From Amoebophrya sp. A120 (taxonomy: Eukaryota; Protista; Dinoflagellata): a stretch of DNA of 64,000 bases. Made by a program: the position numbers and the translations under genes. The notes under the pieces are model-generated. The model saw only the letters and a list, made by a program, of their open reading frames with translations, searched no databases and was not told the origin of the DNA. Where the stretch lies: NCBI GenBank assembly GCA_905178155.1, contig CAJINV010000003.1, positions 7,187,612-7,251,611 of the forward strand, written 5' to 3'. Shown here one piece after another: positions 11,601 through 54,200 of the stretch (position 1 is the first letter of the stretch; every line of letters begins with the position of its first letter).

Positions 11601-14600
11601 GCCGCTGAGAGCGACGCTGGCGCCAAAGTTCATCCGCCAAGAGTTGGACGCCCAGGAGGAGGAGGACCAGGAGGAGACCTCCGTGGGCTGTTCGAAATCC
11701 ACCACGAAGCCGCCCAAGCGGGACGCCTTCCCGGAGGCGGGCGGTCGCCAGATCACGAAAGAGCGGCCCTCTTTCCCGGCGCAGTCCGCCCGAATGCGCT
11801 TCCACCATTTTGGAATTTTGGTACCATCTCCGGGGTAATGTGCCGGGTGGGTGCCCGAGTTCGTGTTGTATTGGTACATGCCGCCCGGTATGGCGCCCGA
11901 GCCGCAGTTGTTTGCGCAGCTGTAGCTGAAATCGTTGCACACGTTGACATTGGTACAACCGCCACTGGGCGTGCACAAATCGTTTGTCACGCCCACTTGC
12001 AGGGGCACGCCGTTCCTTTGAAAGCTGCTGGTGCAGCTTGTGAAATCCTCGGCGCCAAAGTTCTGCGCCCAACACTCGTTGTTCATGAACATGTCGATCC
12101 GCGTGAAAGCTTTGGGCGAGGCGCCCTGGAACCACCGCTGTATGTAGGGGTGCGGGCCGGTCAAACCGTCGATGCCCTCTATTTTTGCAGTGAGCCCGGT
12201 TTTCTGTTGTTGATCCGTCTGCCCGTAGCCAGGGTTGGACACCACCCACGTGGGCGCATTGCATTGCCCTTCGTCGTTTCCAGGGAAAATACCGGGGTAA
12301 GACCCAGCCTGAAGACCGGACACAAAACCGGCAATATCTAGCGGCTGGCCCACCGGCCTTATCCCGGTCCCTAGAGGACCCGACGCGACTTCGAAGCATG
12401 AGCGTGGACGACCCCCCCTTTCACGCTCCTCTGTATCGCATGAACAGCTGATACAAGCATCAACACAAGAGAAGCCTGCGCATCAGAAGCTTTCGAGCTT
12501 TTTACGCGCTCAGTGTACGTAGTACTGCTCAGGCTTCGGAATTTGTCATGCAAATCACGCCACAGAAGGCACCGCACCAGATGGAATGGGGATCATTTTG
12601 CATGACAGATGCGGGGAACGAGGGGGGGTTGATGTGCACTCTCACACGAAGGCAATCTGTGCCACATACAACCAGAACCCACAGATCGTCCGCCGGCCCA
12701 GAATTTGGAGCTTGTAGGCCCGCTTGTTCACCTATGGAAGGGTCAGGATCGAAATCGACAAAGTTGAAATCAAACCAATACTCTGCAAGACATAAAACCC
12801 AAGGAACAAAGTGCCTGTCGTGCAGGGATGGCATCAAGTGGAGCCGATTGTAAGAAGCCTGCTCAGGGATAGAGATAGAGCCGCTAAAGTAGCACGACAG
12901 CAGCAGCCCTCTTTGCCCAAGCAGCATGACAAATTGAAATTGGAGCTGGATATTATAACGCTTCCAAAATTTGTCATGCGCCGCTTAGCAACTGGGTTCC
13001 AACTGGTATGCATTTTATGCATGACGCGTTTTTTGATTTTGTGTTCAACTTCGTCAATTTTTAGCGTGACGATTCCATATCACCGGAACCCAGGTGCCCC
13101 AGACGCCAACGTCCGTAGGGAACGTGTCGTGGTGGTTCGGGGCGGTGGCGCTATCCTGTGAAAAAGTTAAAGCATCGTAGTAATTTTTGCAGTCATGCAT
13201 TTACAAACTTTTTCTTGAGGTACATCCGCGTTACAGATTTCATTTCTCATGCTAAGAAATTTTGCTTGTCACGCGATCATTTTTAATAGTGCGATGCTTT
13301 TGTAGAGCATAGGCACCATCCAAGTACAGTTTCACATCGGCCCAATTGGAGCCAATCGTTCCATCGCGGTTGGAGATAACAAAGCCCGCGACATGCCGCT
13401 GGCGCGCGTCCGAAAATTCCACTGTCCAGCCGTCACTGCTGGAACCTCCGTACCAGCAGAATTTTGGAGTGTCGTAGATGTCTCTTGGTGTCGTGTCTCC
13501 AACGGCCCGGGTGTCGATTGGGTTGCGTCTGGAACCGGTTGGCCCTTGGCCTATATGATTATCGCCTGTCACAGAAGCAGTCAGCGACGCCGGATCGACA
13601 TAAGTGATGCCCGCGCCATACCGCGTCGCACTGAGTTCAGAACTATCTGGCAAGGACTCGTACAGCCAGAAGCCGCAAAGTTGCATAGCATAGGCGGCGA
13701 CCAGTTTTATTTTCCAGACCGACTTGTTGATCGGGACAAAAGTGCCACTTACAGATACTGAACTCGGCGCCATTATGGAAGCGTCAGGAACGAAATCGAC
13801 AAAGTTGAAAATAACAAAATCTTTTTTGTTTTTGCATGCAAGAAATTTGCATGAAAACAGGAACCTGTTAGACTTTGAGATGAAAGTTGAAAATTATAAA
13901 ACTTGTGACGCATAAAATGCTGCAGCGCAAAGAATGCTTCTATTGCAGAGGACGAAAGAGAGGTAGATTGTAGTGCTGGCAAGGGTCATTAGTTGGGCTG
14001 CTGACCACTAGCATGACAGAGGCAGGCCCTCTTGCGCTATTAAACGGCGCGACGTATTTGCTTCAGAGGCTAGGAAAATTTGTCATGCGCCTGCTAGAAG
14101 CTGTGTGCTTAAAAAACGGGTATCGATTTGATGCATTGCAAATTATTTCAACTTTGTCAACTTGGATTCTGACGCTTCCATAGTCTTCGTAGACTCCGCC
14201 GTCGGGCTGTCGTTCAAGTAAATGGAGGCGCCCTCGATCGGCCATATGCATTGCAAACATCTCTGGGTCTGGAAGAGTTCCTCAAACTTTTGATGCTCAT
14301 CCTCGAGCAGACAAAAAATCTGTAATTGTATGAGTTATGATTGCCAAATATATCATGCTGCCAAATCAATACTTGCTTGCTACACAGATAGCAAAATTCT
14401 CATGCGGGGTAGGCACTGAAAAGCCTTCGCAAAGCTTGTAGTAATGCTGCGCATGCATTGCAGGCAATCTATCTGTTACAGAAGATGCATGACAAACAAG
14501 CGCACCTCTCCAGACCCAGACTACATATTTGCATTTGATAGGATACCCGTGGTTGTCAGTGTTGTCCCGCTTGAACACGGTAAACCCAGTGACTATGGGA

Positions 14601-15914
14601 ACGTCAGGATCGAAATTGACAAAGTTGAAGTAATTTCTCATGCACATAAAGATAAAATGCATTCATAGCATGATACGCCTGTCTTGCAGGGGTGGCCGCG
14701 GCAAGTGTGGCCGATTGTAAGCCTGTTCGGGGTTTGCGATGCAGCTGCGAAAGTAGCACAGGACAGGAGCCGTTTTCATCGGTGCCCACACAGCATGACA
14801 AATTGGATTGCAATTATGCTTCCAAAATTTGTCACGCGCCAGTTAGAAACTGGATGTGGGTTCCGACTGGTATCCATTTTATGCATGACAATTTTATTTA
14901 TTTTCGACTACTTTAACCTTGTGTTTGTCAATTTCGATCCTGAGGACGCTCCCATAGTGATGTGCCTCGGCTTTCGGTCTCGGAATTGCACGGCCCAGGA
15001 GTCTAGGTTCCAGTGGTAGCAAACCGTATTTCCGCCCTCGGGTTTCTGCGCACTTGTGTCTCCCTCGAGGCGTGCGAGCGGCAGGCTATGGTGACACGGG
15101 TCTGGGTTTGGATGTCCGCACGTGCCCCAGGTACCGTCGGTATGCATTGCAAAGATGTTGTCTGGGCGGCCTTGTGGAACAGTGCAAGATATGTCCACCC
15201 GCTCGCCTAGAACGCAGTCATGCAGGTTACTCAAAGCCCCCTTGTTTTGTCAACTACATGCAGAGTTTTTCATGCTGTCTCGTAGCTTGAAAACTTGTCG
15301 CGCTGAGGTGTCAACTGATACTGAAGCGTCGTGGTGATCAATATCTTCCCAACAGGAGGAGTATCACAACTTTCCAGTTGACGATGACCCAGACGTATTT
15401 GCATTTGATATACAGGGTAGTTATCAGGGGCGGTCGTCAGCAGCTGTTCCTATGGAAGCGCCAGGATCGAACTCGACAAAGGTGAAAACTTTGCGATACA
15501 CGAAATCGACGCCAGTTGGAAGCCCAATTTCCAAGCGGCCGCGAATGACAAATTGATTTACGAGCTCCGGAATCCAGTTTGTGATGCTGTTTTGGCAAAA
15601 TTAGCGTCCCTTGTCGCGCTACTTTAGCAGGTCACTCTCCAACCACCAAACAGGGTTACAATTGCCCTCGTTTCTTGCGCGCCCTCCTTCCAATACAGAT
15701 AATTTATTGGGTATTTTTGCGTTTTACTTTTATCATGCATATACTTATGTCAATTTCGATCATCCTGACAATCCCATAGTTCCGGTGGCACGAACAGCCC
15801 GGTTGTCCCGGACGCAACGGCGGCCTCGACGCTCGGGATAGTAAACGACGACGACCCGCCGAGAAGTCGTGGAGCTGCCAGAAGCCAAGACGTAAAAAAG
15901 ATCAGCAGGAGCAT
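5656..15914 (-). CDS. Large secreted multidomain adhesin/lectin-like protein (repeated F-type lectin/F5-8C-like beta-sandwich and PAN/apple modules), ~2290 aa, 12 exons; one frameshift and one in-frame TAA
   Basis: N-terminal hydrophobic signal (MLLLIFFTSWLLAA). Repeated CxH...WW/WLxxxF...GxVxFxR...GxxIxL...GTWxP...CGxWxYE modules and CAQWCAQEPxCGGV PAN-like modules. Exons total 6874 nt (3n+1), matching a single extra base near 11177-11180. Confidence 0.75.
5787..6154. mobile_element. Introner-like intron
   Basis: TATG...CATA; flanks TGCCC/TGTTC; internal GCATGACA motifs and a 27-bp tandem duplication near 5877-5930. Removal +5 nt joins YAQIG to EPGQKLLLHHF. Confidence 0.75.
6231..6669. mobile_element. 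Introner-like intron (related to families C/D)
   Basis: IR TATGCATCGCAAAA/TTTTGCAATGCATA (13/14); flanks GACTC/GATTC; removal gives LANPYNNARD. Confidence 0.85.
10389..10506. mobile_element. Introner, family A
   Basis: Perfect 5-bp direct repeat CTTCG; interior matches 26829-26937 (inverted) and 29939-30070; removal gives QCVEEAGMDF. Confidence 0.9.
12733..13079. mobile_element. Introner, family B
   Basis: Long imperfect TIR TATGGAAG.GTCAGGATCGAAATCGACAAAGTTGAA; perfect direct repeat TCACC; removal gives GTWVPVNKRAY. Confidence 0.9.
13152..13311. mobile_element. Introner, family D
   Basis: Starts TATCCTGTG.AAAAG; flanks GGCGC/GGCAC; removal gives YLDGATAPN. Confidence 0.85.
13774..14182. 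mobile_element. Introner, family B
   Basis: TIR TATGGAAGCGTCAG...GACAAAGTTGAAA / TTTCAACTTTGTC...CTGACGCTTCCATA; flanks GCCAT/GTCTT; frame restored. Confidence 0.9.
14245..14540. mobile_element. Introner, family C
   Basis: Ends TATGCATTGCAAA..TCTGGGTCTGGA / CCAGACCCAGA..TTTGCATTTGATA; removal +5 gives HGYPIEGASIYLN. Confidence 0.85.
14594..14956. mobile_element. Introner, family B
   Basis: Same TIR and interior as 12733-13079; flanks GTGAC/GTGAT; removal gives RHITGFTVFKRD. Confidence 0.9.
15141..15410. mobile_element. Introner, family C
   Basis: Ends TATGCATTGCAAAG..TCTGGG / CCCAGACGTATTTGCATTTGATA; direct repeat degenerate; removal +5 gives DNYPDGTWG. Confidence 0.8.
15451..15778. mobile_element. 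Introner, family B (interior inverted relative to 12733 and 14594)
   Basis: TIR TATGGAAGCGCCAGGATCGAA; perfect direct repeat GTTCC; removal gives FVPPEQLLTT. Confidence 0.9.
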
Positions 15915-17486: not shown

Positions 17487-20400
17487 TCACAGTTCCTCCC
17501 CCTTCGCAGACGTCGAACCGTTTGCCACCCAGGTAATGCGGCAGTCGACTTCGTCCCCGATTTCGAGCCCAATGGGGATAATCTGGAACCGCACGCCCTG
17601 CGCGAGCGTCTCGGCAGTCCACTGCACGTCGTCGCACGCTATCACGGTGTTTTGCGCAGCACAGATTTGGCACTGCGTCGTGTGAAGTTTGTTGACGAGC
17701 GGCATACCGATGGTAACGTCGAAGTCCAGCTCGAGCTTGTTGCCGCTACCCGTCAGAAACGCCGCCTGTTCCGGGCGCTGGCAGACACCGGACACGTTCC
17801 GGATCTCGTACACACCGAGGAAGGGAGACACGCCACACAGGTACCCGAAAAACTTATTCTGCCCATACAAGATCCCGATGTACACCTCGTGGTGCCGCTC
17901 CCACAAGTGCTGCAGCTTCTGTGTGAAGGCAATCCGCATACGGTAATTGCCCGGCCACTGGATAGTGCGTTTCTGCAACAAGGAGTCAAACGGCTTCAAA
18001 GAAAAAGCTAGAGCCTTTTTCATTACCCAACTGTGCTCCTCGTCCTCCTTCCGCACTAGCAAGAATTGATCTGCAGAGCCGAAGTTGATAAGATATTCAT
18101 TGGTTTTTCCACATTTAATATTCTTCGTATCTATACATTCATTTTTTTTCTACTATGCGAGTACAGAAGTTTACGTTGACCGTGCGACACTTCTGATGTT
18201 ACAACTCCTGGTCCAGCTCAGACACACAGAACTCAACAAAAACATCAGGAAACAATCGTGCACTACTACTTGAACAACTTCTTCGCATTGATAGATTGTT
18301 CTTCTCTCATCAAAATCAATCCGAAAATCATGACGGTGCGCATGTTGGTACCGAGATCTTCGTCGTCTTGCTGCTGTTGCTCCTGTTGTTTTTTCAACTC
18401 CTCCTGCTTTTTTTTCACTTCCTTTGCCGTCATACGTTGGTCCAGCTGCTTCTGCTCCTTCTTTGAGGTTCTGTAGTGTCGCACAGGTTTGTTGTTGGGC
18501 TTCAACACCTTGAAGACGAGCTTCAGAGCGCGTTGTTCCCGGGAAGTTGCGTCGCCAACCTTTACGCCGGTCTCTTCCTTCACAATGCTGGTCGCCAACA
18601 GAAACTGCACCAGCGCATCAATGTTTTGACTTGTTTGCCGGTAACATTGGCACACCTGGAAGTGAAAGGAAGTGGTCCACGATTCGCTTCCGGGTATCGA
18701 TTTACTTTGCCGTGAAGTGTAGCTACAAATTTACAAACTCCGTTTGGGCGGGCCGTTGATGCTGCCTGACCACCATGCCGATGATACACGAGAACAAAGC
18801 ATCACGTCTTGCGCGACCGTTCTTGATCTTGTAAGGCCTTACTTTATCTTTAGATAAAGAACACCAACATCCATACATCGTCATCGCGCAGTAACCTCAA
18901 GAAATAAATCGCCAGCCAGAATACACTTGAAGTTGGCGAGCCACGATAAAGATGGCGAAGGGGGTCGGAATCGCGATGATCGCTACAGTATAAAAAAATG
19001 AATCGACTACTTACACCCAAAACCCAACGAACGTGCTTTTCTATCATTTCTGATAGAAAAGCTTTCTGATAGAAAAGCACGTTCGTTGGGTTTTGAGCTG
19101 ACTTGTCCACCTTGTCAGTCCCTGCCACTCCTACAACAACTTAGCCGTACCTGCAAAACATCGTGAGTGCTCTTGTCGCGGTTGGCGTTCCAGCGCTCGA
19201 TGATGAGCAGCAACTCTCCCTCGTTCACGATGGCCAGGTCATCTTGGTCCAGAAAGGTGGACAAGAAGCTCGATTCGAGCGAATTCCAGCGCTGGTCCCA
19301 GGAGATCAACATCAGGTAGTTGCGGCTGCTTCCCATCTGCAGCAGGGCGTGCAGCATGTCCTTCTGAAACAACGGCTCCTGCACCGCGTTTCGCAAGTAG
19401 TACTCAATCTTGTAAAAGGACTCCGTAAAGTTGTCGTCGCCGCACACCACCTGGCACTTCAGCGGAAACCACTGCAATTTTTTCAGTTGTACTGTCAAAA
19501 ACAACCAGAACCATGAAGATGTATGTTGACTATTGAACGCAAACTCAACACCCTGCTGCTGCTCAAACCAGTTTCACTATTTGACGAGATAAAGAACAGC
19601 CGTCAGAGGATGGGTAGCTTGGGCGTACTTCAAAAACTCTTCCGGCCGCTTGAAAGCTGGCACTTGTTTTAGCCGAGAGATTAGAACGATCGCAGCCTCC
19701 TTGTCACGACATGTACAGCGATCTTTGAAAATGAAAACAAGCGCGAGGAAACGAATAAGGACAATAATATCAACTAAACCTATATTCTGTATGCGTATGC
19801 TGCGCTCTTGTCTTCCGCCTCCACGAGTTCTTCAAGAAGATGAAGAAGATTGATATAGACCATATAATCTCTATACCTTGATTAGAACGTAGAAGAGGTC
19901 GTCCATCGCAAACTTGGCGGCACAGAACAGCATCGCAAGCATGTTCTCCATATCCTGTGCAAAAGTATCGCACTCGTATAAATGCAAGGCTTGCATATAC
20001 AAGTCTTTATCTTAAGGGAAATCTGCATTACAAATTTTCTCTCTCATGCTGAGAAAATTTGTAATGCATTTATACGAGTACGATACTTTTGCAGTTCATA
20101 CTCCATCAGCGTCTTCTTGGCTTCCGCTCCCTGTGGCTCCATCCACAGGTAATCTATGCGGCCAAGGTACACATACCGCAGGATTTCTACTACTCGTTCG
20201 CCGTGCTCCACCATCTCGTATCGCTCCGCGAGGCTGTGAATTTTGAAAGTTAAAGTTTAAATTGCTGATGTGGAAATAAACCGCGATCTAGCTACAGTAC
20301 TTATTATCTATCGATGCGATCGCTATCCTCTTCGCGTCTAACAAATTATGATGAAATATCGTACCGCAAGGGGTCGCGCCTTTGCAATGCACCCATTTTC

Positions 20401-42380: not shown

Positions 42381-42523
42381 TTTTCACCCGCCCAGCCGGG
42401 TAGGTGGAAAGTGGGACAGAACCACGATCCGGGCCGACTGGCCGGATCTTGCTTTTCTCCGTTCGCGTACGCGTGGATCCGGTTCCGTCCCACTTTTCAC
42501 CCACCCGGCCGGGCGGGTGAAAA
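42381..42523. mobile_element. MITE-like foldback with 43-bp imperfect inverted repeats
   Basis: TTTTCACCCGCCCAGCCGGGTAGGTGGAAAGTGGGACAGAACC vs GGTTCCGTCCCACTTTTCACCCACCCGGCCGGGCGGGTGAAAA. Confidence 0.8.
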
Positions 42524-44367
42524 GTGGGATGACCACAAATCGTCTTAATTTGTTACCCCGCTCTAAGGGTCAAACTTCAGGACTGTGATCAATGTGGACG
42601 ATAGTTCTTGTACGCATTTTTCTATATTGCAATGTAAAATCTTCAAAATAGAAGTTTCGGTAGGTCACTGTACGCATTTTTCTATAAAAAAAGTGGCGCA
42701 TGAATGCTTTTTCCGACGAATATGAAAAATCATACGGGCAAATGAATGCCCTCTGCCCACACATGAGTTCGTTGAGAGTGCCAGGCTTTATTTGGTGGCC
42801 AGACCATAAACGAAGTTGCATCTGAAGCTCGTCTTTTCACACGGCGACTGCGTCGGCGTCGTCGCTTAGAACTGCCTCGTTGTTCTTTTGCGCCACCTTC
42901 ATCGGCTGACGACGAGCTGCTGTAAGAGCTCGACGAGGAGGACATTGAAGATAAAATAAGTACTTCTATGCGAGGACGAATCGCGTGCCTACGGGCTGGA
43001 AATAGAAACTGGCACAACTAATACTAAACTAACCTCCCCGCCTCGGTCATTAAGTAGCTCCACTTCGGTACCTGAACGAGGGCGGTTGCCTCAAAACCAG
43101 GTAGAGACAGGAGGTAGAGACAGCGGCCTCGAGGAAGGCGGCAAAAAATCACCGCCAATCTTGTATGCTAAACAACTTCAACTTCATCATGCTATGTTGC
43201 ATAGAAAAAGGAAGACAAAAAGAAAATCGAGCGGGCGACTGCAAGGAGAAACATCACAAAAGAGAAAAGAACATGATAACCGAGAAAACCGACATGAGGA
43301 CGCCACGATGAAGCCACATGATGGAAGTATAAAACACAAGTAGTGGCACACGATCAGAACAAGAACACCAAACTCACCAAAAAGCATACCAAGCAGTCCA
43401 TTTTCATGCTGCCAATGCCTCCAGACGTGGCTGTGGCATTATATATCTCTTGCAGAAACGAAGATGGCCATGCGGATCGATGCGCGGCCTTTGCGACTTA
43501 CTAATGTAATATCTAGGGCATAAACATTTGAACCTTCGTGGAATCAAATACGAAAACTTGTCTTCCAAAGATTAGGAGACAGCATCCTCGTCACAACGAG
43601 CCTCGACACAACGGTTAGATAGTACTTAAGTGCTTGTAGTTTTTAGGGCAGTTTTTCAGTTTCAAAGCGGCAAGGGGGGAAAGCATATAGCCAACTACAT
43701 ATAGAGCTAGGTCGTAAATCTTCATTGAAGGTGATGCGTAGGTGATAAAGATACTGGCGCTCGGATGCGCAGAACCTTGCTAGCTTGCAATGCTACGCGC
43801 GGACCGATGCTAACCTACACGCCCGGAGAGTTCGAACATACACAAAATTTGCGTCAGCTTGTAAAAGTGCATGTAGCAAATATGTTCAAACTATTTGAAG
43901 ACTTCGACCGCCCTGTCGACCTGTAGACAAAAGAAAAAGCAGTGTCAGCTTTTATTTCACGACCACCGCGTTTTACGTTCATCGAGGAAAAACAAAAATC
44001 ATAGTCGATATAATTATAGAAATAAATTTCATAAAAAATTGTAGTCGTTAGCTTCCAAAACTAGTTCTGCACTTTGTAGACCTTCTTGCTGCCGAACTGG
44101 GGAACTGCTTGCACTTCTTCAAAATTTGCTTTCCAAAAACTCCGGGCTAAACTCTCAACAATTCGTGCAGGTTCTCCATCATTAACACGAGCTGCTTCTT
44201 TCTTTTTTATCTAGGCAACGAATAAGTTCCCTGGATTAAGCATGAATAAGGTGCCTTGTTGTGCCAACGGCGTTATTTTTGTTTTTTCTAATTCGCACAA
44301 CTCTGCCTTTGGCAGACGGCTTTCAAGATGAACAAGATACTTATACGCCTGCGGCCCTCATTTTTTC

Positions 44368-45367
44368 TCATCGGCACTTCAATACTTCTTTTTCGCGTGT
44401 GCTGCCCAATATCATACAAATAGCTTGGTTATATAATTCTGCTGCTCTGGCTGCAGATTGCATCCCAAAGGAGGCCGTCTATGAACTGCAAAAGTATCGC
44501 ACTCGTATAAATGCATTACAAATTTTCTCAGCATAAGCAATGCTTACCTTAAGGAAAAGATTTGTCTTGCAAGTCTTGCAACATTTATACGAATACAATA
44601 CTTGCGCAGGATAGGTCGTTCGAAGATCTCGCAACTTCGCCTACTGCGGGCGGAGTATCTGCATCCGCATCTTCAGCTGAACTTAACAGAGACACATTCC
44701 GAGGACCACTAGCCCGCAGCTGCAATGCCTGTGCGACTGGTGTATCAAATGCAAAACTGTCTGGGTCTGGAAGAATGCGCGAATTGTCATGCTGCTTTTC
44801 CATGACCAATGAGGTCTGGAATGCAGGACCTAGCAAGACAGATTCTGTGCGATCTCTCTCATGCCTATCCTCCATGAGAAACTCTCTCCCGACTTGGTGA
44901 AAACTGGGCGACTTTTGGTAATCACGTAACACAGATTTTTGCGTGCTTCAGATTTAGCATGACAAGTTGCACTCTTCCAGACCCAGACATTTTTACATTT
45001 GATATGGTAATACGTTGTACAACCCGAGGACGTCGTGGCCCAAGGATGAAAACAAGCAAAGTATCCCACGAAAAAACTGTTTCACTGTGAACTTGTGATG
45101 CATGGAATGGAACACAAAACTATTTGTTTTGCTACACGACATGCAAGACGTTGGATCATTTTTCCGGTGTTTTCGCTTGGGAAGTGCGCAGGGCAAATTT
45201 TCTGTGCCATGTGTAACAAACTTGTGATGCAGATCTTGCAAAATCATCACAGTGAAACAGTTTTTTACTGCGATACAAAGTAAACCCGTACTAAAAAGAT
45301 AAGCCGCCACCGCCTTCACTTGGCTGCGATTTTTCACAGAAGCACGAAGATGAACAACCTGCGCCAT
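44368..45367 (-). CDS. Hypothetical small protein with three introners, inside the first cassette
   Basis: Removing the elements gives MAQVVHLR...YLFSTGLLCLFSSLGHDVLGLYNVLPVAQALQLRASG...; 3' end uncertain. Confidence 0.5.
44480..44613. mobile_element. Introner, family D (inverted relative to 19951)
   Basis: TATGAACTGCAAAAGTATCGCACTCGTATAAATGCATTACAAATTTTCTCAGCAT is nearly the reverse complement of 20046-20100; direct repeat poor. Confidence 0.85.
44743..45004. mobile_element. Introner, family C
   Basis: TIR TATCAAATGCAAAACTGTCTGGGTCTGGAAGA / TCTTCCAGACCCAGACATTTTTACATTTGATA; flanks TGGTG/TGGTA. Confidence 0.92.
45062..45275. mobile_element. Introner (family A-like internal motifs)
   Basis: TIR containing AAAAAACTGTTTCACTGTGA; perfect direct repeat CAAAG. 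Confidence 0.92.
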
Positions 45368-45788
45368 TCTGAATTTCTGTGCTTTTAGCTGACGTCCTGC
45401 CGGAGGTAGTGAGACAGTGTATTTTAGCCTGCTCCACCGCGGACGGTATGTAGTGAGACAGTGGAAGAAGAAGATGAAGAACAAGAAGACGAATAAAAAT
45501 GCAAATTCTAATATGGTGAAAGATGAAGTAGGTGACATTATATTTTCAACTTGTGGTGCGCGGATCCTCACTTGACTTCTTTGTTGTCAAAGTTCAAGAG
45601 GCAATAAGTACAAGTGACAGATTCTTCCATATGCATAACGTTCAAACCGGCGCGAAGCTTGGGAACGTCTTTCTCTTTGACGGCCTGGACGATCTCCTTC
45701 GGACCAATGTCGTAATCCGCAATGAGCCCCATCATCTTCTTCACCTCTTTCTCTTCCTGGGACTTCTTCTTTGCCGCTTTCTGCAGAT

Positions 45789-46437
45789 NNNNNNNNNNNN
45801 NNNNNNNNNNNNNNNNNNNNNNNNNNNNNNNNNNNNNNNNNNNNNNNNNNNNNNNNNNNNNNNNNNNNNNNNNNNNNNNNNNNNNNNNNNNNNNNNNNNN
45901 NNNNNNNNNNNNNNNNNNNNNNNNNNNNNNNNNNNNNNNNNNNNNNNNNNNNNNNNNNNNNNNNNNNNNNNNNNNNNNNNNNNNNNNNNNNNNNNNNNNN
46001 NNNNNNNNNNNNNNNNNNNNNNNNNNNNNNNNNNNNNNNNNNNNNNNNNNNNNNNNNNNNNNNNNNNNNNNNNNNNNNNNNNNNNNNNNNNNNNNNNNNN
46101 NNNNNNNNNNNNNNNNNNNNNNNNNNNNNNNNNNNNNNNNNNNNNNNNNNNNNNNNNNNNNNNNNNNNNNNNNNNNNNNNNNNNNNNNNNNNNNNNNNNN
46201 NNNNNNNNNNNNNNNNNNNNNNNNNNNNNNNNNNNNNNNNNNNNNNNNNNNNNNNNNNNNNNNNNNNNNNNNNNNNNNNNNNNNNNNNNNNNNNNNNNNN
46301 NNNNNNNNNNNNNNNNNNNNNNNNNNNNNNNNNNNNNNNNNNNNNNNNNNNNNNNNNNNNNNNNNNNNNNNNNNNNNNNNNNNNNNNNNNNNNNNNNNNN
46401 NNNNNNNNNNNNNNNNNNNNNNNNNNNNNNNNNNNNC
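45789..46437. other. Assembly gap (N run)
   Basis: Run of N. Confidence 1.
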
Positions 46438-46604
46438 CTACAACTCAAATACACCTTCACTCGCTCCTGGTTTAGGAATGCACAAGAACTGGTTACTATC
46501 CTACTCACAAGAACTGGTTACTATCCGCCATTGCAGGAGTGAAGATTGAGCAGGTGGTCGTGCAGTCAGTCTGGTCGACGAGGCGTTTATCTCTAGTACA
46601 ACTT

Positions 46605-47409
46605 CTACTTTGCCGCGCTGCCCTTGTTTCCGGCTCCTGCGTTTGTGGGGGATGAGGTAGACTTTGCTGCAGATGAAGAGGATGCTCCACCGCCCCTTCT
46701 CGGCGACTTGCTGCTGCTCTCGGCTGCTCCGCCACTACTTCTCCCCGCAGACATCAGCATGGAGTTCACCGTGGCCTCGTCGTCCTCTAGGAAAACCCGG
46801 TCGGTGGGCACCTTCAGCTTCAGTTTGTGCTTCATGAACCCGCGCACGTAGCTGCTGGCCAGGTCCCACACGTCGTGGCAGTCCGGGGACGTCAACAGGT
46901 TCACGTCCGCCTTCTTCTTGATTAAGAGGAGAAAAACCTGCTGGTCGAAGTTAATCGCAGCTAGGTGGAGCAAGGTCATCCCCGTGTCCGGGTCCCGCGT
47001 GTTTGGCGAGACGAAGGCCAGTATGAAAATGTGCAAAAGTCTGCTACTAGTATGTACCTCTTGCGTGGAAGAAGAAGATGAAGAACAAGAAGACGAATAA
47101 AAATGCAAATTCTAATATGGTGAAAGATGAAGTAGGTGACATTATATTTTCAACTTGTGGTGCGCGGATCCTCACTTGACTTCTTTGTTGTCAAAGTTCA
47201 AGAGGCAATAAGTACAAGTGACAGATTCTTCCATATGCATAACGTTCAAACCGGCGCGAAGCTTGGGAACGTCTTTCTCTTTGACGGCCTGGACGATCTC
47301 CTTCGGACCAATGTCGTAATCCGCAATGAATGAGCCCCATCATCTTCTTCACCTCTTTCTCTTCCTGGGACTTCTTCTTTGCCGCTTTCTGCAGATTAGG
47401 AGACAGCAT
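46605..47409 (-). pseudogene. Frameshifted copy of the ankyrin-repeat cassette gene
   Basis: Near-identical to 50445-51245 but with a 4-bp duplication (AATGAATG near 47325-47332); same intron at 47022-47241. Confidence 0.7.
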
Positions 47410-48164
47410 CCTCGTCACGACGAGCCTCGACTTTCTGAGAAAACAAAAACTATATCAGATCAGATCAGAATATTACCGTTTGGTATGCTCGCACTCGTTG
47501 GTGCGGCGGTGCAACAGTTTTTTGGAGAGAAACTCAAGAGACCCCCAGTGAAAGCTAGATAGATAGATAAAGAAAAAGCTGGACGGACTAGTGGAGAGAG
47601 AAAAGAGGAACGAGAGCTACAGTGAGCCACTACCTGTGCCTTGACTTAAGATGATTAAACAACGTTGATAAAAGGTAAAGGAAAAAACAAGACATACTAC
47701 GCCCTTGACTGAGAACTAGCATTTTTGTTACAATAATTATACTCGTTGGCGAAAAATACATTTTTAGACGGGGACCAGGCGAGCTGTACGAAATCTACTT
47801 TTTGAACCTTCTGTAGTGATGAGAGCTAGCTTTTTCGCGTACTTTTAGGACCATAGCATGCGGACCAGGCGAGACGTTTTTACTGGCTTACTCACGGGAA
47901 AGTTTAACTTTAGCGAGCGACGCTCTTTCTGTAGAACACTAGACCAGCCTCAGTTTCCTCTTTCCTGTAGCAACACGGCCCTCACGTCCGCTCGTTCGTA
48001 TATCTGCATATCGATGGAAAAGAACAGGCTGAACTCGCATATAGCATCGTGATTTGCTACGCACAAATCACTTACCGCGTGTTCATCCTGGGGGGCTTAG
48101 TGTTACCAAAGTTGCTCCGTCGTCGTGTGTGAGGGCCGTGTTGCGTGTGCGTCTGCAACTACTA

Positions 48165-49019
48165 CTACTGCGGGTCCGCGCGCGCCGCTTCCCGTGCAGC
48201 ACGCTGGCGCTTGAGTCTCGAATTCTGTTGGTCGCGGGTGCTGTTAAACTCGTCCCGGTACTCGATCGCCTGCGCCAGAGCCGCGCCCGGGCTCCCATAC
48301 GCCTCAGGCTTCAGCGTCTTTGTCGGGTGCCACATCTCACCTTGGTCGTCCTTCAGAGGCACTTTGACCAGGAGTTTTTCTTCTTTCGTGAACGTAATGT
48401 AGCGCGGGAGCACAAGATCTCTGACGCCTTCGATCAATTTCCGTTTTTCGTTCGCACGCACTAGCGGGTCCACGCGCTGGCGGCGGACAAGAGGGCGGGG
48501 AGCTTCCGGGGGGCGTCGCTGCTTCAGCTTTGCGGTGACCTGCTGCTTGAATTCTTGTACCACAGCCTGCTCCTTGATCTCACGCATGTGTACGAAGGCC
48601 AAGCGAAGACAAGAGAAGTCCTTGAAGCTCCAAACCTTACTACTCTTCTTGCAGCTGTCGCATCTGCACCTGACCCCTTTGAGCCGCTTCTCCTCCGATG
48701 GTTTGAGGCCCAGACGAAACGCGGAGCGGTATGCTGCTGGATCGAAAGTCGCTGGGGTGCATACGAAGTGCGGGAAGTCCTTCACCTCCTCGAGGATGTC
48801 GAAGAGCTCGTGGTGAAGCGCCTGAAGCAGCTGTTCTTCGACTGGGTGGAGGTCCGGCGTTCCTAGCCGACCCGGTCCCGGCAGAAGTGTGGACGCCGGT
48901 GTCGGTTGCCTATTCCCCAGCCCAGCAACGACGCGCTCCACTCCGATGTAGCGCGAGACAACTCCCAAAAACTTCTTGTCCTCCTGCCCAACCCTCCGAG
49001 CCCGCTGCTCAATGTTCGC
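48165..49019 (-). pseudogene. 5'-truncated AP2 (ApiAP2-like) DNA-binding protein fragment
   Basis: Frame is open from the repeat junction with no N-terminal ATG; WHPTKTLKPEAYGSPGAALAQAIEYRDE resembles the AP2 strand-helix motif; a second weaker AP2-like segment starts LKGVRC. Confidence 0.6.
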
Positions 49020-49543
49020 GATTAGGAGACAGCATCCTCGTCACGACGAGCCTCGACTTTCTGAGAAAACAAAAACTATATGGACTAGCTTTTCCGCCCT
49101 GCTGGTACCTGATTGAGTTATTTCATTTTGATACAAATTTGTCGTGCTGATCTGTGTCAGCACGTGATCCTTTCGCCGGAACACAAATCTTCCACAAAAT
49201 GCCCGCTGCTGGGGTGGTCGGGGCGCCGGAGTGCCTGGCTTATTCCTGTGCTGTCTGGTGAGTCACACCCTTCACAATGGCGAGAAAAGGTCCGAGTCTG
49301 TAGCGTTCGTAAGGTTCCAGTATTCAAAACGTGCTCTACAGCAGCGAGGCGTGCAGCGAGGACCACACCGTGACGCCCGTGCCACAGAGGTGGCAGCGAG
49401 GCGCCCTCCCGCCCGGCCACGGAGGTGGCCCGGGCCGTGCTCCAGTGCTCCACGGAGGTGGCTACACCGGGTGCAGCAGAGGCTGCATCAAGTCCAAGTT
49501 CGCATGGCTGGCGCCTCCACTCGGATCCCGCCGCCCTGTGGCT

Positions 49544-50090
49544 TTACTCCGCCATGCGAATCTTGCCGGCTTTGTCGCGTAAACAGGGTGGCTCTCGTAG
49601 GTGTTTGCGGTTCGTGACGTTGTGCGGAGGGCAGGCAGGGCAGACTTCCACCCGCTTCACGTAGTGTCTGCCCTGGTGCATGAAGAGGCTCCCGCTGGCG
49701 ACCTTCTCGGCCGGTAGTGCGGGTTTGGCTCCAGCGGTGGAGCTGCTGCTGTGCGTCGCGGCCTTGGTCTTCATGGGCCGGGACGTGGAGGGTGCTGGCG
49801 CGCTTGCCAACTGGAGGGCTGGTGCAACTCCTGGCGGCAATCCATGCGGCACTTTAAGGTAGTGCGGCTTCGGCACCGCTGACTTCCCGCGCTTGCTGAA
49901 GAACGGTTCGTCTTCCACTGGGTCCAGCGCTTCCTCGCACAACACACTGCTGCGCTTTCGCCCCTCCTGTGCCTGCTTCGCCGGCTTCCCCGGCTCACCT
50001 TCCGACCCGCTGTACTCCTGATCGCTCCCGCCTGCTGCATCCTTGAAGACGACGTCGCCGGAAAACCGCAGGTCGGCGGCCAGCTTGTAG
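49544..50090 (-). pseudogene. 5'-truncated GC-rich coding fragment with a CxxC..H motif
   Basis: Open from the junction (YKLAADLRFSGDVVFKD...) to VEVCPACPPHNVTNRKHLREPPCL; no N-terminal start codon. Confidence 0.5.
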
Positions 50091-50444
50091 ACGAAAACTT
50101 GTCTTCCAAAGATTAGGAGACAGCATCCTCGTCACTACGAGCCTCGACTTTCTGAGAAAACAGAAGATTTTACATATACGTAAACATTAAGTGGTTGAAG
50201 ATAAATCACATTTACATCACGTTCGAGCTATCTGTTTTTGCTTCCTTCAAACGAAAGCCGTCGCGCTGTCTTGCTCCCTACAACTCAAATACACCTTCAC
50301 TCGCTCCTGGTTTAGGAATGCACAAGAACTGGTTACTATCCTACTCACAAGAACTGGTTACTATCCGCCATTGCAGGAGTGAAGATTGAGCAGGTGGTCG
50401 TGCAGTCAGTCTGGTCGACGAGGCGTTTATCTCTAGTACAACTT

Positions 50445-51245
50445 CTACTTTGCCGCGCTGCCCTTGTTTCCGGCTCCTGCGTTTGTGGGGGATGAGGTAG
50501 ACTTTGCTGCAGATGAAGAGGATGCTCCACCGCCCCTTCTCGGCGACTTGCTGCTGCTCTCGGCTGCTCCGCCACTACTTCTCCCCGCAGACATCAGCAT
50601 GGAGTTCACCGTGGCCTCGTCGTCCTCTAGGAAAACCCGGTCGGTGGGCACCTTCAGCTTCAGTTTGTGCTTCATGAACCCGCGCACGTAGCTGCTGGCC
50701 AGGTCCCACACGTCGTGGCAGTCCGGGGACGTCAACAGGTTCACGTCCGCCTTCTTCTTGATTAAGAGGAGAAAAACCTGCTGGTCGAAGTTAATCGCAG
50801 CTAGGTGGAGCAAGGTCATCCCCGTGTCCGGGTCCCGCGTGTTTGGCGAGACGAAGGCCAGTATGAAAATGTGCAAAAGTCTGCTACTAGTATGTACCTC
50901 TTGCGTGGAAGAAGAAGATGAAGAACAAGAAGACGAATAAAAATGCAAATTCTAATATGGTGAAAGATGAAGTAGGTGACATTATATTTTCAACTTGTGG
51001 TGCGCGGATCCTCACTTGACTTCTTTGTTGTCAAAGTTCAAGAGGCAATAAGTACAAGTGACAGATTCTTCCATATGCATAACGTTCAAACCGGCGCGAA
51101 GCTTGGGAACGTCTTTCTCTTTGACGGCCTGGACGATCTCCTTCGGACCAATGTCGTAATCCGCAATGAGCCCCATCATCTTCTTCACCTCTTTCTCTTC
51201 CTGGGACTTCTTCTTTGCCGCTTTCTGCAGATTAGGAGACAGCAT
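50445..51245 (-). CDS. Chimeric ankyrin-repeat protein (~190 aa); ATG supplied by the array repeat
   Basis: MLSPN|LQKAAKKK...KLRAGL..FVSPNTRDPDTGMTLLHLAAINFDQQVFLLLIKKKADVN after removing TAT...ATA intron 50862-51081 plus 5 nt. Confidence 0.65.
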
Positions 51246-54200
51246 CCTCGTCACTACGAGCCTCGACTTTCTGAGAAAACAAAAACTATATGGACTAGCT
51301 TTTCCTCGTCACTTTCTCCCTACAACATTGCGCAACGTGGTTCGCAAGAAGAACTAACATGGCAGCTAGGCACCAAACTCCAACTGGTACAATTGCCGTC
51401 GCCGACGTGGTGAAGATGTTACAACCCAATGCAATCTCTGTCTCGTAGTTTTATATTTTCATCCAAAACTGTATTCTGTATCCGTTGCATTCCCTTCGTT
51501 AAACGCCAAGGTGCTGATGTTGTTGGAAACATCCACATCGGCAAGGGTAAGCAGCGCAAGCGCTACCGCTACTGCATTAAAGTTCATTTTTTGCTCACAC
51601 AAGAACGCCCTATCTTGTTATCAGTTTTCCTGGTCAATGAAGTAGCAAGCTATGCGCAGCTGTTGTGGACAAAAGTGCGAAGAACGAGGGCAGCAACTGC
51701 ACAAGGACAAGCGGAGAGACAGACTTTTGCTCGACCTGAAGTTCGATCATCCTCCTGCTGCTGACTGTACTTTTTTTGTAGCCGTACGATATTTTTGCAT
51801 CATTTAGTCCTTTCTAATTTTTTTTTAATTTTTTCTAAGAACTCGAAGTATGCCATTGCCAGCTACACTTTCCAGAAGACCCTCCGGCTCTCCTCCCTGA
51901 GCTCGTTCCTATAGTAGTAAAATCAATATATTTAGCGTAGCATTTATATTGCTCCATCAAATATAAAAGTAGACTAGATCCGCAGTCGTGCTCGCGACTC
52001 GGGGTGTCGGTGTGGAAGGTCGTCACCAGATCAACTGGGATAAAGATAATGTTACATGCGGACGAGTGGAAGCTCGCTCTTATTTTTCGTTAATATCTAT
52101 ATCTTTTAGCATGTGCATGCCCAGCAGTTGCCAGCCAGACATGAACTACTACGCTAAGGAGCAAAGAGTCAACTCTGAAAGAAGGAGTCAGATTCAATTC
52201 ATGTTCCGGGTAGTAATTAGAACTGCAAAATGCACTTTTTTCATTTTGCCGTGTAAAGTGGTCTCGAGATGAGAAGAAAGGAGCCTCCTGCTGCCATTCG
52301 CTTTACTTAGCCGTAACATGATACATTGAATTCGTCTCCACATCATCATCAGAGAGTGAGCTAATCCTAGTTGTCGGTCCTCCCACCCGCACATAGGCCC
52401 ATACCGTTAACAAGCGGAGACGCTAGCGATTAGGGCAGAGCGAACTGCCATGCTTCCGATCTATGACAATGACGTAGTTGTAGTTCTTGAAGCATTTAAA
52501 TAAATATGAAGAGGATGCATGGTCGTGCATTCTCTCGGAAGTCCCTCCCTCGGCGCCACCAATCCGCGTGAATTGTTTCTCCTGATTACGCATACGTAGA
52601 GGCTGACGCTATTATTTTTCATGTTGGCGTCATTTCCACACAAGGCCACGGCACACTGTCTTCATGCTCTACTTTCTATAAAAACGTCGAGTGTATAGAA
52701 TCGCGTTCTGATTTCCATTTCCATGTATTTCTAAATTCCTCTCGTCGCCTTTGTGACGGACGACACAGAGCCAGAAGCCCTGTCGCACTGTCTTGATGCA
52801 CACGAGAGGACAGATTTGTATGTATACTTACATAGTCGTGCTTGTGGTCTTGGATGTATAAGATAGACAGAGCATCGGACTTGAATATAGGCCAAATCGA
52901 AGACAACTATTTCTATTTCCGATTCTTCGCATGAAGGTGCTCTTTCATTTCTTACCTAGCCCAGGCGTGGGCAACGACTCGGAGGTGCATAGAAACATTG
53001 TACGACACGGGCATCGGCATCGTTGCGCTTGTTGATTGTCCGCTTGATGTAAAACTAGAAGTCCAAACTCAGCCAGTGCGCATTGCAAAGTTTTCAGGAC
53101 CACGATGTCATATTTTCATCAGGTACAACGTACATCTACATTTACTGTCAATATTGTACAACTAGCGGCAAGACATGCCTCGTTATCCTTAAGTGTGACA
53201 GGATCATGAAATAGAAATACCACCAGCAACTACAAGATACTAGACAACTCCACACGACGGAAAACTTCTCGTCGGCAATGTCCAATCGATGTCCTGTAAG
53301 GTGGCGTAGCAACCGTTCTGTGATGACGAGCATATAATTTTTCTTCCTTAGTTTACTGCTTGTTCTATCTTCGATTGCAAGTGACTCCAGAATTCAACGT
53401 GGTTCCCGATAGATTGGAACCATGCTGAAGCTGATGCAAGGCCAACCATTCTGCTGCAGCAGCGCCAGCAGCGAACAGCAGGCTGTCAACATCAAATGAG
53501 TCATAGAGACCTTGCAACTCCTTTTTTTTGAATGGCGACATCATTGACGTAACAAAAAAAACTCGCTATAAAGATATTTTTTTTTTTCTTTCTGCTACAT
53601 CGACTGCACATCATGCTTTTAAGTATGTTGTGTAAGGCTACGGACACCCACGGCCATGACTCTCAGTCAAAGAGCCTGAATAATGAAATGCGTGAAATTA
53701 CAAGGAATCCTGACACTAGGCTACTGCTTGCGCCCCCTAGTACTCACGAATTCCTAAAAACAAAACGTATGGCTCCTGAATGCAAATGCAACTTGTTCTC
53801 GCAACTTAATCGTCTTCGTGCAAAAGTGTTGGAATCAAATTCATCAACGTCGCGAGTATAATCGTCGCACTCGACATCGCTTGAGGGTTTTTCGCCTCAC
53901 CTAGTATTCGAGCTCGAGAATGAATCGACTAAACAACATCAGAGAACGAAATAACAATCAATATAGAACCTTGGATCTCAATAAAAATAATTTTATTTTT
54001 TATGAAGCAACGCCTATGATCTCGCTTTTACTCCAGACGATGCCCCCTTGGAGCGGCTGTGAGAGCTCCGCGAAGCGCCCTCATGAGCTAAGACTCGACC
54101 ACGCGCAATACTGTAATAGAGGCGGTTACAGGTGAATCTGGCCGTGTACAAGCCGCCTTAAAATCTAAAAACGTAAGGCCAGGACCTGGTCGTGAGATGA

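Follow-up and report, generated by a model that had tools for sequence, protein, structure and literature searches.

Serial insertion into a duplication left by an earlier insertion is known from R1 tandem arrays and, more widely, from R1/R2, CZAR/SLACS and R9, and the excerpts of PMC2718515 and PMC5814959 describe R1-type arrays as 5'-truncated units in one orientation with the target duplicated between units. In R1 the later element enters the duplication made by an earlier one, and the transcripts include flanking target sequence (PMC2718515, in part). Target duplications of more than 50 bp are known for Dualen and R9 LINEs (PMC9977147, in part). Penelope-like elements retain introns when they retrotranspose and mobilise host genes, introns included, in trans, and Terminons are head-to-tail chains in which host genes lie between 5'-truncated units (excerpts of PMC3846280, PMC8557442 and PMC6431247). 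Helitrons and Replitrons can carry co-oriented, intron-bearing host fragments in series, with Replitron-1 combining variable duplications with one fixed end (PMC10288648, in part). Integrons and CRISPR loci, too, hold foreign pieces separated by repeats at one site and grow from one end.

The locus described here shares features with each of these systems. In the window, a stretch of 64,000 nucleotides from Amoebophrya sp. A120, a pattern search found five exact-register copies of a 38-bp core, starting at 43570, 47394, 49020, 50111 and 51230, where 0.02 are expected by chance and 0 of 100 shuffles reach five. This confirms the array that a first-pass annotation had placed here, together with its left insert junctions (43607, 47455, 49095, 50162) and the lengths of its internal flank-bearing copies (62, 76 and 72 bp), and it supports the picture of a single site holding several unrelated inserts with target copies between them (Table 1). 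Core and right part are common over 38, 62, 76 and 52 bp in copies 1-4, the 20-bp left flank is common to copies 1 and 4 only, and the single variable core base, position 26, is A, G, G, T and T in copies 1 to 5. From 45786 the assembly gives only GAT before a 648-N gap, and these bases (45786-45788) are probably the first three of a sixth core. Inserts measure 1-2.2 kb and repeats 38-76 bp; every insert lies on the minus strand and is a 5'-truncated 3' end. An Rfam search over 40-56 kb with E up to 5 gave four weak matches, none over the core, and on this ground the core was rejected as an SL RNA, snRNA or ribozyme target. The core pattern had 0 matches in JGI metagenome contigs, and a Nextera adapter was rejected as its origin, with only 7 bases in common. 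Nothing comparable turned up for Amoebophrya or any other protist in the open-access literature searched.

Table 1. Features of the array, in window coordinates
Feature	Position	Strand	Remarks
Left flank (20 bp) and core copy 1 (38 bp)	43550..43607		variable base A
Insert 1, left part	43608..45460	-	three inverted-repeat segments
Insert 1, right part: 5' piece of ankyrin insert, apparently re-copied	45461..45788	-	ends in GAT
Assembly gap, 648 N	45789..46436		N run in assembly
Insert 2, second ankyrin copy	46437..47393	-	equals 50277-51229 save one 4-bp duplication
Core copy 2 and right part (24 bp)	47394..47455		62 bp in total; variable base G
Insert 3, 5'-truncated ORF and 3' region	47456..49019	-	44% identity to CAD7941176.1
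Core copy 3 and right part (38 bp)	49020..49095		76 bp in total; variable base G
Insert 4, 5'-truncated ORF with C-terminal CxxC and 450-bp 3' region	49096..50090	-	match to P0004
Left flank (20 bp), core copy 4 and right part (14 bp)	50091..50162		72 bp; variable base T
Insert 5, ankyrin tail of host gene CAD7967140.1	50163..51229	-	exon/protein comparison
Core copy 5 and right part (38 bp)	51230..51305		variable base T; continues into unique right flank
11-bp direct repeat bracketing a 47-bp segment	51245..51313	+	repeats 51245-51255 and 51303-51313

The array is real, with several of its junctions present in public read contigs; the order and number of its units are provisional, as the assembly gives them. 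In the stretch compared with read contigs, 47394-52500, one contig of the DNA run (X1) spans insert 3 into core copy 3 (48671-49049) with 0 differences, another of 3785 bp leads from 51276 through the right part into the unique right flank, and loose ends around core copy 1 in a second sample (X3) equal its left flank and the beginning of insert 1. No record of the DNA run crosses an entire core with unique sequence on both sides, as would be expected if alleles or core-sharing loci had been joined serially by the assembler and the ankyrin duplicates had arisen from the gap and its filling. The gap does have ankyrin duplicates on either side, and two haplotypes in the DNA run are suggested by a second ankyrin allele and by the depth of array-type contigs, 17-31 against 62.4 in the flank (about 0.4x), from which it follows that the array may be confined to a single haplotype. 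We nevertheless see only a slight chance of such an artefact: read contigs speak for the junctions at 49019, 50905 and copy 1, the core copies differ at the variable base, and the window-type ankyrin allele has a depth of 94 against 29.5 for the other (3.2x), as expected for a donor plus inserts 2 and 5. The published A120 assembly, from which the window presumably comes, was moreover screened with Nanopore for chimeric joins (PMC7789003, in part).

The ankyrin cargo has an identified donor. Insert 5 consists of a 5-nt intron end (TGCAG), an exon (residues 779-825), a 225-nt intron, the last exon (residues 826-962) and a 3' region, and it matches the 962-residue CAD7967140.1 with 100% identity over residues 826-962. 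Residues 1-760 are not in the window and the donor gene lies outside it; with this full-length donor elsewhere, the insert is not the sole copy of an ordinary gene. The 48 nt at 50163-50210 may be filler of other origin, and an X1 contig boundary falls at 50211. X3 contigs contain the spliced form of the ankyrin piece with its upstream exon, and in RNA contigs the 225-nt intron stands at 67.6 spliced to 11.1 unspliced; none of the listed runs with matches is recorded as RNA. The 4-bp duplication in insert 2, at 47325-47328, shifts the reading frame. The right part of insert 1 shows 0 differences from 50905-51232; an X3 contig begins exactly at 50905, the point at which insert 1 switches to the ankyrin piece, and the switch point at 45461 carries 3 nt of microhomology. 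Such identity implies a common right junction by descent, and the three ankyrin pieces appear from their sequence to be a single capture, copied again. Only two or three independent junctions therefore stand behind the supposed fixed base: of the four right junctions in five said to share it, three are one ankyrin junction, which leaves two independent junctions at one base and one 20 nt away.

Two of the four distinct cargos, inserts 3 and 4, belong to multi-copy repeat families, which weakens the claim that the cargo is the organism's own genes: half of it is repeat-like. Insert 3 aligns with residues 132-409 of the A120 protein CAD7941176.1; its ORF has a zinc-finger-like CxCDxC and a weakly AP2-like C-terminus (an AP2 lead, 0.84, is all the Atlas comparison gives), and its 3' region closes with a 110-bp terminus that is present in high copy and contains a hairpin and (TCTGA)n. 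Family copies diverge at 47459, in a short tandem repeat (loose ends of three contigs, agreement 0.49). No longer homologue of insert 3 was found among 7992 candidates, and no relative of its family was confirmed in viral and metagenome contigs. The fold search with P0001 had Toxoplasma mitoribosomal chains as its best result (E 0.06-0.2), and searches with two predicted models, P0001 among them, gave no match at E 0.001. The raw RNA runs X10 and X11 gave 1 and 69 reads; those of X11 lie on a 35-bp patch, and hand translation of its flanks yields P0001. Since the reads fall on this P0001-like patch, they are uninformative about the array. The left part of insert 1 probably derives from the 3' portion of another gene with introns: it has introner-like inverted-repeat segments at 44486-44609, 44743-45004 and 45061-45276, and their removal leaves no convincing single ORF.

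Insert 4, for which the Atlas comparison gave nothing, has P0004 as its sole relative (residues 287-433, E 7e-26, 39-42% identity), and P0001 and P0004 cannot be aligned to each other; viral contigs gave no relative of P0004. Upstream of the matching part, P0004 has, by eye, tyrosine-recombinase-like residues (R95, K122, QSFRR 189-193, LGRGW 217-221, Y230), their spacing being judged against the Cre and DIRS motifs. A Crypton- or DIRS-like tyrosine recombinase might accordingly act on the core as if it were an att site, integrating or reshuffling circular units in an integron-like manner. The variable base does lie between the 5-bp arms of an inverted repeat in the core, within its 4-nt spacer, the 11-bp repeat ends there, and re-insertion of the ankyrin unit would fit excision and re-integration. 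We consider this improbable. The domain found no support in Pfam, PHROGs, NCBIfam or PDB searches, Foldseek returned no match (predicted model, pLDDT 35.9), and the catalytic part is not in the window. Recombinase sites have arms of 11-13 bp and spacers of 6-8 bp (PMC3212892, in part) against 5 and 4 in the core, and the recombinase would leave unexplained how truncated host tails acquire both half-sites.

The reading we favour, tentatively and at somewhat less than an even chance, is that a recurrently cut site received unspliced RNAs in trans by target-primed reverse transcription, in a manner resembling R1 arrays with Penelope-like cargo. A putative retroelement enzyme would copy unspliced nuclear RNAs into a recurrently cut intergenic target, each insertion would duplicate the target, and the next insert would enter the surviving copy; insert 2 and the right part of insert 1 would have been re-copied from insert 5 via core homology. 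Growth would have been mainly at the left end, because the common right-part lengths shrink leftwards (76, 62, the gap, 38) and, read in that direction, the variable base is T, T, G, G and A. In favour of reverse transcription, all four distinct cargos lie on one strand (chance 0.125), the three with an identified relative keep the stop codon and 3' region without the 5' part, and insert 3 ends at its family's terminus. Copy number rises 3'-ward, in insert 3 from 24.5 (48671-49049) to more than 600 (606-1005 at 47459-47568) and in insert 4 from 47 in the ORF to about 145 in the 3' part, and right-part lengths nest as expected of insertion into earlier duplications. Non-LTR elements are present in A120, and the text of the supplement names no PLE, Helitron or DIRS (PMC7789003, in part).

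Several observations stand against reverse transcription. An RT or endonuclease is found in 0 of the 128 window ORFs, which, with Rep also absent, bears out the earlier statement that no integrase, RT or transposase is visible; poly(A) is absent from all insert ends; and the independent junctions number only two or three. The array differs from R1, R2, CRE and SLACS in carrying four unrelated cargos without a common element 3' end, so that the SLACS/CRE parallel, the closest of the three first offered, holds only in part; its target is apparently low-copy and intergenic, with no Rfam match that would make it an rRNA or SL RNA gene, and its duplications are variable, at 38-76 bp, unlike those of the R1 type. 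Nor is there the 180-220-bp pLTR or, by Rfam, the hammerhead of Penelope-like elements, and in contrast to Terminons the junctions lack telomeric repeats and the site is internal, among ordinary genes. The 3'-biased depth of insert 4 could also reflect terminal repeats of a recombinase element.

The polarity of the junctions depends on where the target is cut. With the whole repeat taken as the duplication, the fixed junction falls at the cargo 5' end and the variable one at the 3' end, the reverse of the fixed 3' and variable 5' junctions of R1 and R2; with a cut at core position 26 the two agree. Such a cut, a less firm part of the proposal, may be indicated by the variable base and by the 11-bp duplication, whose first copy ends at that base and whose second lies just past the right part (rough chance about 1e-4); the 47-bp segment between them is likely the oldest and smallest insertion at the site. 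With priming at position 26 the true duplications would be 11, 26, 26 and 46 bp, and right parts of 12-50 bp would be copied target sequence.

The retained ankyrin intron and the three introner-like segments also count against reverse transcription, and the composite build of inserts 1 and 5 fits DNA template switching equally well. A repeatedly nicked or broken site might have been repaired by strand invasion and template switching (SDSA, MMBIR or theta-type end joining), in which stretches of 1-2 kb were copied from the array itself and from other loci and the target was duplicated by fill-in. This would account for the kept introns and introner-like segments, for the missing poly(A), for the start of insert 5 within an intron, for the microhomology and 48-nt filler, and for re-copying inside the array. 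We rate it as unlikely, though the likeliest of the alternatives: it predicts neither a single strand for all four cargos with their 3' ends kept nor the stop of insert 3 at its family terminus, and it leaves the fixed base unexplained.

The core could also be the terminus of a small mobile element, or belong natively to an intron of the ankyrin donor, with the units being read-through or transduced flanks (of Helitron, Replitron or 3'-transduction type) that were later concatenated. The ankyrin junction lies 5 nt before the exon, core plus TGCAG resembles an intron end (the branch-point motif count speaks neither for nor against this), and the 20-bp left flank shares the reading frame of the insert-4 ORF and so may be cargo; hairpins occur near some 3' ends, and Replitron-1 likewise pairs a fixed end with a fuzzy one and makes variable duplications (PMC10288648, in part). 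The probability is nonetheless low. The core-insert 3 junction is single-copy (24.5), which means no source copy elsewhere in that run; the core depth of 88-135, in which the tool leaves the sharing of reads among copies undefined, is unlike that of a high-copy element; and the right part passes unbranched into 3.8 kb of unique flank. Helitrons begin with 5'-TC and end in a hairpin and CTRR, whereas here CTRR occurs at one of four insert ends, with no common terminus and no Rep; they also leave no duplication (PMC12130899, in part), and here each unit is bracketed by 38-76 bp.

The parallels drawn at first with CRISPR adaptation and integron cassettes fare worse. The inserted pieces are gene tails of kilobase size that come from the genome itself, the repeats vary in length, and neither Cas1 nor any other Cas domain occurs in the window; attC-like sites and an integrase are likewise missing, and only one of three junctions gives an in-frame fusion. 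We attach the smallest probability to the core serving as a landing site dedicated to an Amoebophrya enzyme, either a tyrosine recombinase or an RT-endonuclease with sequence specificity, that would add tails of host genes and active mobile elements from one end, leaving a eukaryotic integron- or CRISPR-like record that varies between haplotypes and may feed silencing of captured elements. A programmed capture locus would be of far greater importance, and this sequence shows no sign of function. Instead, the array is likely a trap that a retrotransposon enzyme built by inserting repeatedly at this spot, and its role would be limited to trapping mobile and nascent RNA.

Even on this ordinary reading the record is unusual: 3' fragments of heterologous origin, introns included, have piled up at one low-copy target with duplications of 38-76 bp. 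The Amoebophrya genome is known for its invasive introners, and the array points to an active, uncharacterised integration activity, for which the core provides a defined target sequence for finding and testing the enzyme. If the depth means that the array is on one haplotype, empty and filled alleles would coexist in the culture and the mechanism could be read directly. The ATG of the core shares its reading frame with the ankyrin exons, which offers a route to new truncated genes.

The 38-bp core that separates the five inserts was recovered at the five definite positions given by the first-pass annotation, an 18-base core pattern giving five matches against 0.02 expected, and the left insert junctions fell at the same positions on re-reading. 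Blocks of 38, 62, 76 and 20+52 bp are common to the core copies. The ankyrin piece of insert 1 (45461-45788) equals 50905-51232 of insert 5, and 46437-47393 of insert 2 equals 50277-51229 of insert 5 but for a 4-bp duplication; these pieces are copies of each other and therefore have one right junction, common by descent. The fixed right-junction base, previously claimed for four of five cases, thus has the support of two independent junctions (ankyrin, counted once, and the AP2-like insert 3); that of insert 4, the CxxC fragment, lies 20 nt away. The core-like motif pairs may mark older units or a recognition motif.

Features of the array and its surroundings, in window positions
Feature	Position	Description
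Dispersed inverted-repeat intron-like families	12732-15639, 19951-20100, 44480-44613	Several families, recurring throughout window; 67-95% identity
Palindromic MITE-like repeat	42381-42529	~1 kb left of array; 43-bp arms, internal 21-bp perfect hairpin
Core-like tandem pair	43099-43131	GAGACAG preceded by GGTAG/GTAGT; left of array; 43117-43131 matches core at 13/15 bases
Core copies 1-5 (starts)	43570, 47394, 49020, 50111, 51230	38 bp
Core-like tandem pair	45400-45463	Same motif; at template switch within insert 1
Assembly gap	45789-46436	648 N; GAT alone readable before it, at 45786
High-copy 110-bp terminus	47459-47568	Hairpin and (TCTGA)n end; depth 606-1005 in run X1
Insert 5 (and 2)		Intron end TGCAG, exon aa 779-825, 225-nt intron, last exon 826-962 and 3′ sequence of 962-aa gene
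Expressed second ankyrin version	50341-50857	Contig of run X3; 8 letters differ, 3-bp deletion, different 3′ region
Donor intron	50859-51083	Non-canonical GT...TG ends; confirmed by A120 gene model and spliced contigs
Core ATG and ankyrin exons	51012-51254	In frame; ATG behind polypyrimidine-CAG stretch of right part
Recurrence of 11-bp sequence ending at core position 26	51303-51313	47 bp bracketed (rough chance 1e-4)
Flank differences	51741-51757	

A single base of the core varies, position 26, which reads A, G, G, T and T from left to right and sits in the 4-nt spacer between the arms of a 5-bp inverted repeat; because three bases occur there and no variation elsewhere in the 38, it suggests a break or priming point. 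The same letters fit two parses of the target. In the first, the duplication is the whole 38-76 bp and the fixed end lies on the cargo's 5′ side; in the second, the cut falls at position 26, the duplications measure 11, 26, 26 and 46 bp, and the right parts consist of target sequence that was copied. The second parse regains the polarity known for R1/R2, to which passages of PMC2718515 ascribe a rigid first cut and a flexible second one. The lengths of the common blocks are consistent with nested insertions made mostly on the left side. The 20-bp left flank may be cargo: it shares the reading frame of the insert-4 ORF. The core plus TGCAG could be the end of the donor's own intron; that the core is an element or intron end, for which Replitrons provide an analogy in parts of PMC10288648, is improbable.

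Over 137 residues the ankyrin ORF shows 100% identity to A120 CAD7967140.1, the product of the donor gene, which suggests that the window comes from A120 or a strain nearly identical to it. AT5.2 carries an orthologue of the donor gene; donor residues 1-760 were not found in the window. Contigs of X3, a second sample's run, skip exactly the 225-nt intron and extend upstream to the preceding exon of the donor (a hand-translated contig end). Given its in-frame core ATG, insert 5 could encode a short ankyrin protein; for inserts 3 and 4 the core ATG is out of frame. Three inverted-repeat segments in the left part of insert 1 resemble the Amoebophrya introners described in PMC7789003. Insert 3 has a sole match, residues 132-409 of A120 CAD7941176.1 (44% identity), and its AP2 likeness is weak. 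Insert 4 matches residues 287-433 of a single metagenome protein, P0004, which upstream of the match carries R, K, QSFRR, LGRGW and Y. We take the order and spacing of these residues to resemble those of tyrosine recombinases; profile, sequence and fold searches gave this assignment no backing, and capture through recombinase-driven circles is a rather unlikely origin of the array.

Read evidence covers 47394-52500 in four of 12 runs. In X1, a DNA run that is possibly the source of the assembly and is not independent, a 379-bp contig of depth 24.5 passes from insert 3 into the core with no differences, and there was no sign of a second near-identical copy of 48701-49019. Depth climbs toward the 3′ end in insert 3 (24.5 to 606-1005 in the last 110 bp, other copies of which have unlike flanks) and in insert 4 (47 to about 145). 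Each of the two belongs to a repeat family, and the 110-bp terminus is a short repeat, or the end of an element, so far undescribed in this genome. In X3, loose contig ends around core copy 1 match the left flank and the beginning of insert 1 (from one contig or two), and a contig begins at precisely 50905, the point of the template switch in insert 1. Junctions 47455, 49095, 50090 and 50162 were not among the 14 of 50 loose ends and 16 of 157 pieces listed. We consider mis-assembly of the array distinctly improbable.

All four distinct cargos run in the same strand direction, and all three with a known relative lack the 5′ part and keep the stop codon and 3′ region. Tentatively, and at somewhat under even chances, we favour an RT acting in trans: a cut at the site would prime reverse transcription of unspliced RNAs, and the ankyrin unit would be re-copied afterwards. 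Such a model would account for the orientation of the cargos, for their 3′ anchoring and for the element terminus at which insert 3 ends. Penelope-like elements provide precedent for retained introns and host cargo in sections of PMC3846280, PMC8557442 and PMC6431247, and long duplications are known in Dualen and R9 from part of PMC9977147. Against it stand the composite inserts, the absence of poly(A) from the ends of all four distinct cargos and the lack of an enzyme: the first-pass annotation saw no integrase, RT or transposase, and no domain of these kinds, nor a Rep or Cas domain, was found in the 128 window ORFs, where introns may hide short exons (Pfam matches occur in 11, all on the minus strand). 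DNA-templated repair at the site explains introns and fillers but leaves the orientation unexplained, and is a less likely, though serious, alternative. Serial insertion at one site, which holds under reverse transcription, repair and recombinase circles alike, is probable; a programmed capture locus is very improbable.

Six window-type contigs have depths of 17-31 (median 25) against 62.4 for the right flank (ratio 2.5), and the second ankyrin allele stands at 29.5 against 94 for the window type; this ratio, 3.2, fits the donor plus inserts 2 and 5. The second version is likelier an allele than an annotated paralogue, because the donor protein cluster has one member. These data suggest two haplotypes, one of which carries the array; the alternative is that the flank is duplicated. 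Together with the flank differences, the second ankyrin version is a hint that this strain, commonly handled as a single genome, has two haplotypes.

The array was found to belong to no family tested, and no comparable locus in protists is described in the open-access literature searched. In how it works it resembles an R1 tandem array, here with Penelope-type cargo. On the basis of one locus and two to three independent junctions, with no enzyme found among the window ORFs, the array is taken as a variant of known insertion hotspots.
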